DNA from: Octopus vulgaris
Lineage: Eukaryota
Reading direction: 5' to 3'
Length of the DNA stretch: 64,000 nucleotides
Assembly: GCA_951406725.2 (NCBI GenBank)
Contig: OX597825.1
Coordinates: forward strand, 76,818,001-76,882,000
The translations under genes were made by a program, and so were the position numbers. This document shows positions 910 through 45,946 of the stretch, piece by piece. Under the pieces are notes generated by a model, which did not search any database, was not told the origin of the DNA, and worked only from the letters and a program-made list of their open reading frames with translations. The first letter of the stretch is position 1; each line of letters opens with the position of its first letter.

Positions 910-1377
910 GATGACGCCGTTAATCGCTACACACCAGCCGATGCTAATTGGTCGGTAAAAATTTAAGATGGCTTTTGTGGCTTTTAAGCTTATATAATTA
1001 GTTCCAAGAAGCCAATCATGTCATTTAAGGCTGTGTTTCAAAATTGAAAATCTGAGTAATGAGTTTCGAAACGCGGTAGAGACCCCTTTACAATATGCAA
1101 AATAAAAGAATATATGATAAAAAAAGAATAATAAAAAGTAACACATGAATATATATAAACAAATAATATCTACATATGTCAGAAGTGAACTGCGATGTCA
1201 TAATCGAGTTAAACTATGATCAGAAGACAATACAATCTAGACATATAACCATCCTACAATATACATATAATAGTATATTACCCGACGCATTATTTGTCAG
1301 GGAATTTAGCTGCAACAACTCGTCTGACGAGTGATGTAAAAGATCTATTATTTGCACAGTGGTATCATTAATTGTAA

Positions 1378-1610
1378 GGCGGCGAGGTGGCAGAAACGTT
1401 AGCACGCCGGGCAAAATGCGTAGCCGTATTTCGTCTGCCGTTACGTTCTGAGTTCAAATTCCGCCAAGGTCGATTTTGCCTTTCATCCTTTCGGGGTCGA
1501 TTATATAAGTACCAGTTACGCACTGGGGTCGATATAATCAACTTAATCCGATGGTCTGTCCTTGTTCGTCCCCTCTGTGTTTAGCCCCTTGTGGGTAGTA
1601 AAGAAATAAA
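1378..1610 (+). mobile_element. SINE family A (tRNA-derived, Meta-like core), full-length young copy with TSD
   Basis: Head GGCGGCGAGGTGGCAGAAACGTTAGC, B box GAGTTCAAATTCC, core GCCTTTCATCCTTTCGGGGTCGAT..AAGTACCAG, tail AGCCCCTTGTGGGTAGTAAAGAAATA; TSD TATCATTAATTGT at 1363-1375 and 1611-1623. Confidence 0.9.
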
Positions 1611-17940: not shown

Positions 17941-18104
17941 GTAGTAGAGTGGTAGCAGCAGTCCCTCATCTTGTTGACGTAAACAATCGCACTAACTGTA
18001 AACTGTCCTTGTAAATGAATGTCTTCTTCGTTTGATGCCCCTGTGGCAAATAAATTAATACCCATCATTATTTTCCTTCAACATTACTGACCTTGTGCCT
18101 ATGT

Positions 18105-18322: not shown

Positions 18323-18359
18323 ATTTCTGTGCCTCTATTAGACTGAACTATTGGCTGCT

Positions 18360-18960
18360 AATGCACCGACTAATGTCCCGACTACATCACTAACAGATTC
18401 TCCTAAATGGTGAGTCGGTGTGGTCTCCGTTTGTATGATACGCCTTTCCGCTGCTCATCTCTTTGACAGAGATACAATCTTGGGTCGAGATAAAAGCAAG
18501 ATTCCTGGCATCCGGAATCTCATCAGGCGCTCTTCTCGGTTAATCAGACAATGCGATCGGTAGCGATATATAAAAATCTAGCGGTAGGTAAGAGCAAATA
18601 CGTTCTCAAGAAAACTATCGGCGTCGACGAAGATGAACTTGTTGGTCTGCTTCAGAGGACTTTCGGACCAGGTACTACTATGGATAACTTTCAGAAATCC
18701 TTGGTCTGACAGTGCTACTGAGGAGCAGTGACGAAACCTTTCGGCATGCACTCGTGCAGTGTCCGAGTATTGTTGACTTGAGGAGTATGAAACGAATCAG
18801 ACCATGGGTTGAGTCCACCGTGAGGATCTCCTCCACCACCCACCACTAACAAGGTAGGGCAGGCGATGCTCTTTTGTCTAATGGCTATGGTGAAAGTGTT
18901 TGGGTGGTGGACGAGGCCGAAAAGATTGAGAGAATAAACCTTTTTCCTCGGCCAAACTAT
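18360..18960 (+). mobile_element. L1/Tx1-like LINE ORF2 C-terminal fragment, decayed
   Basis: TFGPGTTMDNFQKSLV*QCY*G followed by SDETFRHALVQCPSIVDL (second half of a CCHC zinc knuckle). Confidence 0.6.
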
Positions 18961-24598: not shown

Positions 24599-24809
24599 GG
24601 CGGCGAGCTGGCAGAAACGTTAGCATGCCGGGCGAAAATGCGTAGCCGTATTTCGTCTGCCGCTACGTTCTGAGTTCAAATTCCGCCGAGGTCGACTTTG
24701 CCTTTCATCCTGTATAAATTAAGTACCAGTTACGCACTGGGGTCGATATAATCGACTTATTCCGTTTGTCTGTCCTTGTTTGTCCTCTCTTGTGGGTAGT
24801 AAAGAAATA
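24599..24809 (+). mobile_element. SINE family A, young tail, with small deletions
   Basis: GGCGGCGAGCTGGCAGAAACGTTAGC...GTGGGTAGTAAAGAAATA followed by GGTAT. Confidence 0.9.
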
Positions 24810-24893
24810 GGTATATGTGCATGTAAATATATATTTGTGTAGAGTATGAACGTATCTATATCTGTATATGCACATATACATATGAATATATAC

Positions 24894-33559: not shown

Positions 33560-34130
33560 TTTTCGTGCCTATCCTCATCTAAAGTCACAAATGCTGAGTA
33601 AGGACCTGAAAGGTACAATCACGATTATATAAGGAGCTGAAATGAGATTCCTCCAAAGGAGGGTGCGTTGTTCAGAGATCAAGAAATCCCTCCAGATCGA
33701 AACGCTAATTCCACTACGACAGATATGTGACTAGATTTTCACAGGGAAGAATCGCAAGACGGATTCTTCAAGCCGAGGCGGCGAGTTGGCAGAAACGTTA
33801 GCACGCCAGGTGAAATGCTCAGCGATATTTCGTCTGCCGCTAGGTTCTGAGTTCAAATTCCGCCGAGGTCGACTTTGCCTTTCATCCTTTCGGGGTCGAT
33901 TAAATAAGTACCAGTTATGCACTGGGGTCGATATAATCGACTTAATCCGTTTGTCTGTCCTTGTCTGTCCCTCTGTGTTTAGCCCCTTGTGGGTAGTAAA
34001 AAAATAGGATTCTTCAAGCCGATCCAATCAGCAGGAGACCTCGAAGTAGCGCATGAATGAAACTGTTGAATAATATCCATTGCCTCAGTTGTAAATCCAC
34101 CCGGAACGTGTAATGACGGTTACATTTGAG
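33560..34130 (+). mobile_element. RTE (Expander/Rex3-like) fragment split by a SINE-A
   Basis: GAEMRFLQRRVRCSEIKKSLQIE...GRIARRILQA[SINE]DPISRRPR; same family as 15270-15860. Confidence 0.65.
33777..34006 (+). mobile_element. SINE family A, full-length young copy with a perfect 16-bp TSD
   Basis: TSD GGATTCTTCAAGCCGA at 33761-33776 and 34007-34022. Confidence 0.95.
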
Positions 34131-40979: not shown

Positions 40980-41460
40980 GGAGGCGAGCTGGCAGAAACG
41001 TTAGCACGCCGGGCGAAATGCTTAGCGGTATTTCGTCTCCCGTTACGTTCTGAGTGTAAATTCCACCGAGGTCGACTTTACCTTTCATCCTTTCGGGGTC
41101 GATAAATTAAGTACCAGTTACGTACTGGGGTCGATATAATCGAATTAACCCGTTTGTCTGTCTTTGTTTGTCCTCTCTGTGTTTAGCCCCTTGTGGGTAA
41201 TAAAGAAATAGGTATTTCGTGTCCCGTTACGTTCTGAGTTTAAATTCCACAGAGGTCGACTTTGCCTTTCATCCTTTCGGGGTCGATAAATTAAGTACCA
41301 GTTACGCACTGGGGTCGATATAATCGAATTAACCCGTTTGTCTGTTTTTGTTTGACCTCTCTGTGTTTAGCCCCTTTTGGGTAGTAAAGAAATATGTATT
41401 CGTTCGCTTTCACGTTCTGAGTTCAAATTATGCAGAGGTCAACTTTGTCTTTGGCCTAGT
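40980..41460 (+). mobile_element. SINE-A tandem array: head, two 184-nt units, then an older partial copy
   Basis: Units 41027-41210 and 41211-41394 both start GGTATTTCGT; a third diverged unit starts at 41395. Confidence 0.9.
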
Positions 41461-41761
41461 GCCAAAAAAATCTGAAAATAATATAGATCATTGCATGTCA
41501 TAGAGCTAAGCACAAACATCGTCATTGATACAACACAAAACGTAACACAGGGCACTATGAGACAATGAGGTCACTTGGCCGGCTAAATGTAGCAACCGAA
41601 TCACCCTCAAAACATAACGATCTACGAATGGAAGCAACGGATGCGAATTGGGCAGGTTTAGATGTCTCTAATATGATATGATGGCCATAACTGCAGTATA
41701 CAGCAGATCGAATGTCAGCAGTGGCAGAGGGCTAAATGACAACAACAGCAGCAGTAGCAGC

Positions 41762-45627: not shown

Positions 45628-45946
45628 GACCCAGTATGCAACTGGTACTTAATTTATCGATCCCGAAAGGATGAAAAGCAAATTCGACCTCGGCGGAATT
45701 TGAACTCAGATGAAATACCTATTTCTTTACTACCCACACATACATAGAGGGGACAAACAAGGACAGACAAACGGATTAAGTCGATTGCATCGACTCCAGT
45801 GCGTAACTGGTACTTATTTAATCGACCCCGAAGGGATGAAAGGCAAAGTCGACCTCGGCGGAATTTGAACTCAGAACGTAACGGCAGACAAAATACCGAT
45901 AAGCACTTCGCCCGGCGTGCTAACGTTTCTGCCAGCTCACCGCCTT
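45628..45946 (-). mobile_element. SINE-A dimer: full copy plus a partial second unit
   Basis: Minus-strand junction GTAAAGAAATA|GGTATTTC at 45720/45719. Confidence 0.85.

Follow-up and report, generated by a model that had tools for sequence, protein, structure and literature searches.

A young octopus SINE inserts at GGTAT, over-uses the copy of this motif in its own head and stacks into ordered tandem rows

A young SINE in the 2.8-Gb, microsatellite-rich genome of Octopus vulgaris occurs within a single window (the whole stretch of 64,000 nucleotides analysed here) both as solo copies and as rows in which the next unit begins at one and the same point of the SINE sequence (Table 1). How does an element come to stand tail to head with itself, and what picks the site? 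The original prediction held that the SINE targets GGTAT, a motif in its own head, and offered two routes, a sequence-biased endonuclease driving self-insertion, or tail-to-head fold-back or circularisation allowing rolling reverse transcription.

The 3' flanks cited in that prediction were all in place (GGTATTTCG at 41211, TGTATTCG at 41395, GGTATTTCA at 45719 on the minus strand, GGTATATG at 24810 and GGATTCTTCAAGCCGA at 34007), and the flank at 34007 proved to be a target site duplication (TSD) of 16 bp, as claimed. The upstream target of the 1378 copy is GGTATCATTAATTGT, and its downstream TSD copy begins AA. A TSD was sought for the 24599 copy and not found, and none was seen by eye around the 40980 array. 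The head hairpin with the target motif in its 3' arm was recovered with a predicted stem of 12 bp rather than 11 bp (z -3.1, folding of a 41-nt piece), and the Tx1-like remnant announced near 18360 is a piece of ORF2. Of the supposed tandem units, the first two are indeed alike (175 of 184 positions identical, unit length 184 nt), but the one at 41395 is an old copy with a B tail, likely the original host of the array. Two variants had been called private to the 184-nt units: GAATTAACCCG occurred in 0 of 463 other sampled units, but AATTCCAC occurred in 26 of the 463 and is not private. Sharing of a private variant characterizes the 40980 array and not arrays in general. A local duplication has probably contributed to the two window units. 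A Blastn search of the window with the 40980 copy gave 29 matches, which comprise five places with the long A tail and many older SINE copies that have a different B tail; a 55-nt head stretch of unit 1 has 2,153 exact matches genome-wide.

Table 1. Features of the SINE, its arrays and a related LINE remnant in the window
Position	Strand	Feature	Basis
1378..1608	+	Solo copy; 15-bp TSD, upstream copy begins GGTAT	
18352..18834	+	Broken ORF2 remnant, L1/Tx1-like LINE group, 33-40% identity to intact copy	E 1e-18
24599..24809	+	Solo copy, followed by GGTATATG at 24810	
33777..34006	+	Solo copy; perfect 16-bp TSD beginning GGATT (GGATTCTTCAAGCCGA at 34007)	
40980..41210	+	Unit 1: young SINE at full length (231 nt), tail of TAAT type	Sequence match
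41011..41038	+	Predicted 12-bp head hairpin; target motif in 3' arm	Fold prediction
41027..41035	+	Self-target site GGTATTTCG, SINE position 48-56	
41186..41210	+	Tail end common to SINE and L1/Tx1-like LINEs: stem-loop plus AATAAAGAAAT	
41211..41394	+	Unit 2: headless (48-231), TAGT-type tail	
41395..41480 (end approximate)	+	Unit 3: old, deleted, starts at position 48, B-type tail remnant	
45630..45944	-	Second array: full copy, then deleted unit from position 48	

The element has several features of a SINE2: it is short (231 nt), non-coding and present in high copy number (95,589 exact young tails), it shares its last 24-26 nt with LINEs, and its insertions are flanked by TSDs. Its head is predicted to fold into a cloverleaf-like structure (z -2.3) and contains putative A and B box-like motifs, judged by eye against the consensus; ARAGORN and Rfam returned no tRNA or RNA-family match. 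The tRNA-derived octopus SINEs OK, OR1 and OR2 were reportedly described by Ohshima and Okada in 1994, and the present element is possibly of the same family.

Genome-wide, GGTAT follows directly upon 43,602 of the 95,589 exact young tails (45.6%), and GGTATTTCG, which is SINE position 48, upon 24,847 of them (26.0%). Set against 692 GGTAT per 908 kb in sampled stretches, this is not chance, and the bias predicted from the window holds across the genome. Flanks were read in 471 SINE-bodied tails, a non-random sample taken from those places on contig C1 that were listed first, from two lists selected for young copies, from a list of CAAT tails and from by-catch, and excluding the central tails of AGAAAC-selected loci and all loci from a pattern search for full-length copies after GGTATTTCG. 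In this sample 263 tails ran into unique DNA and 208 continued into SINE, at position 48 (n=175), position 15 (n=17), position 42 (n=4) or single other offsets (n=12); neither the flanks nor the multimer junctions are scattered at random, as they might have been.

TSDs were scored from position 6 onwards with the first five bases left free, and the results refer to a 12-bp floor. The score was passed by 65 of 166 unique-flank tails vs 0.65% of shuffled pairs, with duplications of 12-20 bp and a mode of 15-16 bp; removal of 17 low-complexity or duplicate cases left a TSD set of 92/260. In the upstream TSD copies of the 70 T-type tails, the first five bases were G in 55, G in 55, T in 60, A in 51 and T in 40 (background frequencies: G 0.21, T 0.28, A 0.31), positions 6-10 were flat, and the start was GG in 51, GGTA in 36 and GGTAT in 21, a G at -1 being present in just 6 of the 70 (p 0.008). 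Because the motif lies in the upstream copy, the possibility that GGTAT is simply part of the consensus tail is ruled out. Targets that depart from the consensus were also duplicated exactly in the youngest sample (7 mismatches in 150 sites, directionless), as a nick at the motif edge predicts. For the T-tail subfamilies GGTAT is thus a soft target of five bases that is present before insertion.

The target class shifts with the SINE tail variant. Upstream TSD copies of C-type tails start with GG in 3 of 22 cases, compared with the 51 of 70 for T-type tails (p 2e-6), and TATAT and AGAAA predominate among them; the commonest flanks of B tails are ATATT and TTATT (together 32 of 71). Among 12,990 CAAT-type tails, AGAAAC, a second self-junction at SINE position 15, comes next in 1,995 (15.4%), compared with 1,146 of 82,599 others (1.4%). 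In all tail classes TAT recurs at +3 to +5, in GGTAT, TATAT, ATTAT, AATAT and GATAT flanks; the tail itself ends in the reverse complement of these three bases. Pairing of the tail with TATTTC was rejected as a general rule, since solo insertions show no preference for TTC at +6 to +8.

Insertion into the SINE's own head can be observed directly. A strict pattern for a full-length copy lying directly after GGTATTTCG has 159 matches in the genome, and in the 30 that were viewed the upstream sequence was a host head in 19 (two being one locus), a previous tail in 9 and unique DNA in 2. Several TSDs of such copies have host-private variants in both TSD copies; full-length SINEs stand at position 48 of older heads and are flanked by a duplication. 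Position 48 makes up 87 of the 692 sampled GGTAT sites (12.6%), yet it accounts for 57% of the GGTAT flanks in the genome and for 22 of 45 among the youngest copies, an over-use of about 4-fold that goes beyond what a five-base motif explains. Nine tails are followed by a GGTACTTA-type site, which is also present on the opposite strand of the SINE. In contigs of four other organisms, the SINE and tail-to-position-15 joints were found in 4 of 4, at a depth that is not interpretable; in the contigs of organism D (run X17), where depth is unreliable, tail-to-position-15 joints are better supported than any other joint, a hint that the favoured self-target differs between species.

The order of units within arrays indicates how they grow. 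Both tail types could be resolved at 138 of the 175 position-48 junctions, and they differed in 92. Read from 5' to 3', the order is TAAT, TAGT, CAAT, B, with TAGT before CAAT in 23:0 and TAAT before TAGT in 23:2 (arrays with B first stand outside this comparison), so that units of younger type lie 5' of units of older type. Most sampled arrays are dimers of unlike units; in 39 arrays the mean identity was 0.924 between neighbours and 0.904 between random units, some pairs reaching 0.97-1.0, and the 5' unit was the nearer to a central copy (0.931 vs 0.916, p 0.002). The youngest units are found on many different older hosts. Only 3 of 113 first units, and 1 of the 27 youngest, retain an extra head, so that merging of heads is the rule, at insertion or soon after. 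In the youngest arrays the crossover varies: a host variant at 48-59 is shared in 4 of 11 informative cases, together with one shared deletion, and head positions 8-25 are more diverged than in solos (p 0.01). A host-TSD signature at 48-63 was rejected as a general array feature, since across 84 arrays host variants at 48-63 were shared with unit 1 no more often than variants elsewhere. These results support sequential self-insertion with a seamless 5' join, and some arrays, the window pair included, were probably enlarged later by local duplication.

As the mechanism we regard as best, and as somewhat more probable than not, we propose a GGTAT preference set by an endonuclease together with homologous merging at the 5' end. 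The SINE lands at GGTAT with duplications of 12-20 bp and over-uses the GGTAT at its own position 48, and the endonuclease that reads the motif likely comes from an L1/Tx1-like LINE able to recognise the tail which the two elements share. A newer copy would then insert into an older one, and the matching heads would merge at the 5' join, by homologous annealing during insertion or by recombination soon after, to give headless 184-nt rows. The target motif, the TSDs, the fixed junction, the full-length copies in older heads, the position of younger-type units 5' of older-type ones and the tail shared with intact LINEs are observations; which LINE supplied the enzyme, that this enzyme rather than RNA picks GGTAT, and that heads merge by homologous annealing, we infer. 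The first route of the original prediction accordingly stands as to target bias and self-insertion, with a putative endonuclease step. Against this reading count the behaviour of the tail-identical LINE described below, the excess at position 48 and the lack of excess host variants at 48-63, and, as the target class follows the tail variant, carrier or enzyme would have to have changed with time.

A LINE sharing the SINE tail had been predicted and does exist. A zf-RVT search gave at least 150 matches, and 30 loci plus about 12 further copies were read. The last 24-26 nt of intact LINEs are identical to the TAAT tail of the SINE; their ORF1 has a CCHC knuckle, and their ORF2 an APE endonuclease, a reverse transcriptase and a C-terminal zf-RVT domain. 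The nearest solved relative is human L1 ORF2p; the best protein matches, at 29% identity, are to unnamed proteins or to hypothetical proteins from fish. The family found does not, however, use GGTAT, which follows 0 of 18 exact-tail copies, whose TSDs are diverse. Among the sister-family LINE ends viewed GGTAT came next in none, and of other ends one, from an unrelated family, was followed by GGATG and one by GGCAT. Most of the 18 copies are about 99% alike vs about 96% for the youngest SINE group (different regions were compared, and six LINE copies were too short to score); these LINEs look younger than the SINE burst and need not be its carrier, which weakens the 18 copies as proof against an endonuclease. 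A non-SINE tail led to an older sister LINE family, which lies within (ATT)n-type repeats in nearly all of 30 loci of its own, so that LINE families differ in the target they choose. In 1.6 Mb of loci no LINE family preferring position 48 was found; a single LINE end lay there (locus L187), and this LINE was rejected as a position-48 carrier because its relatives in four runs continue into (ATT)n.

The alternative that survives best, possible although we hold it unlikely, is that RNA guides the priming. The SINE lacks a T4 terminator, so transcription would run on beyond its tail into flanking sequence, and the first of these read-through bases would pair with nicked DNA and pick the site. A source copy would then pass its own target on to its progeny, and sources within arrays would favour position 48 in a self-reinforcing loop. 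The tail-identical LINE that never uses GGTAT, the tie between AGAAAC and the CAAT tail and the roughly 4-fold over-use of position 48 all speak for it, and there are precedents in the available text of the sources: read-through pairing raises R2Ol insertion (PMC6530143) and likewise acts for SART1Bm and R1Bm (PMC7265360), and L1 primers pair from 4 nt (PMC3649969). In those systems, however, pairing of the RNA 3' end assists at a site set by the enzyme; R2Ol, R1Bm, SART1Bm and human L1 are a model for such guidance, which in the present case is hypothetical. If RNA overwrote the target, the downstream TSD copy should be nearer to GGTAT than the upstream one. This was the case in the sample tested first (15:4 overall, p 0.02; 11:4 among T tails, p 0.12), but a pre-planned replication on the youngest copies gave 3:5 (T tails 2:3), and the pooled ratio is 18:9 (p 0.12), so that overwriting, seen in one sample only, is not supported; pairing without overwriting would leave no such trace. 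Also against RNA guidance, TTCG, which read-through from arrays would supply, is not preferred at +6 to +9 of solo targets, and the LINE, being apparently too young, need not be the carrier, so that its indifference to GGTAT says less. It may be, with a probability that we set rather low, that the SINE picks its site by its own read-through RNA and that an early landing in a head locked in the self-targeting loop, independently of any LINE preference.

A second alternative accepts the GGTAT bias as real but derives most arrays from a small number of early self-insertions, which spread as transcripts of entire multimers, the rows being enlarged by local duplication or unequal crossover. Dimers to pentamers are flanked by outer TSDs that match the class of the last tail, as copying of multimer RNAs would also lead one to expect; neighbours resemble each other slightly more than random units do, the two window units have a private variant in common, and ten tails occur at about 185-nt spacing at C1:4.676 Mb. 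An outer TSD is, however, also what the host keeps, and the full-length insertions at position 48 with host-private TSDs are evidence of repeated independent events, and the hosts of the youngest units are many different older copies; we consider this alternative improbable as the general route.

The second route of the original prediction, in which tail-to-head fold-back or a circular RNA would keep reverse transcription circling on a single template, is very improbable and as main route largely refuted: the tail GAAATA is complementary to TATTTC at 50-55 and a minority of neighbours are near-identical, but neighbouring units are mostly unlike in identity and in tail type, the latter with a fixed polarity, which a single circular template cannot give, the motif is also present in the upstream TSD of solos that lie in unique DNA, and RNAfold predicted no tail-TATTTC pairing in the junction piece.

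Endonuclease-set targeting, the reading we prefer, has its closest parallels in the Tx1 clade, where, in the available text of PMC4494074, target choice is set mainly by the endonuclease. As described there, crocodilian Tx1-Mar LINEs and SINEU share a LINE-SINE preference for a site in a repeat, tandem insertion and additions of 5' heads; their target, however, is a third element, Mariner-N4, whereas the octopus SINE uses its own head, with a motif of just five bases, and its rows are headless and seamless. Tx1L/Tx1D, Keno, Kibi and Koshi are, by the same text, APE-type LINEs with sequence preference, and the sister LINE in (ATT)n recalls the microsatellite-targeting members of this group; in contrast to their strict single targets, the tail-identical family is diverse in its sites. 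Squamate SINE-derived satellites and jerboa Dip/B1 multimers likewise consist of tandem units made from SINE parts, nearly half of jerboa Dip copies lying in multimers, but according to the available text of PMC10702118 these arose mainly by recombination, or consist of full-length monomers, with no fixed insertion motif reported. Local amplification of sub-SINE units, which defines SINE-derived satellites, is seen here in a minority (the window pair and the long arrays). No description of a SINE targeting its own head was found in the available text of PMC4494074, PMC3747384, PMC7265360, PMC6530143, PMC10702118, PMC4758252, PMC12988792, PMC9795677, PMC3649969 and PMC13282606.

Self-targeting and ordered stacking are real and genome-wide. 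About 25,000 exact junctions show a SINE using its own putative promoter-bearing head as a landing pad, a direct route from a dispersed SINE to a tandem repeat. The age-ordered tail variants with differing targets form a large natural data set that bears on the shares of endonuclease and RNA-DNA pairing in non-LTR target choice, and self-inserted arrays imply that SINE family counts in repeat annotation may be inflated or confused.

Several minor observations concern the SINE and its LINE relatives. Repeated partial heads lie 5' of full copies at C10:17996023-17996503 and at loci L079, L160, L210, L231 and L326, as eight 64-nt units in one case and pieces of 14-20 nt in others, and resemble template jumps. 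One SINE tail, at L027:~1180-1480 (+), is split by an insert of about 300 nt that is palindromic and MITE-like. A related stem-loop followed by a CTAATAAAGAAA-type tail forms the end of further, non-SINE elements (L076, L090, L158, L212, L084, and the window near 18000-18058), which suggests more passengers of the same LINE group, and at L323 (minus strand) an ORF1-only element with a LINE-like tail lies at SINE position 7. Related LINE families themselves stand in head-to-tail arrays of mixed families, with units of about 5.2-5.4 kb, at C10:76646000-76686000 (L299-L302), C6:94.75 Mb, C2:73.04-73.06 Mb and C22:14.18 Mb, where the tail of one unit apparently runs into the 5' region of another at a point that varies. 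Finally, at L309, L311 and L313 one LINE family is found three times in the same repeated element, at offsets of up to about 17 nt, a preference like that of Tx1/Tx1D without a fixed base.
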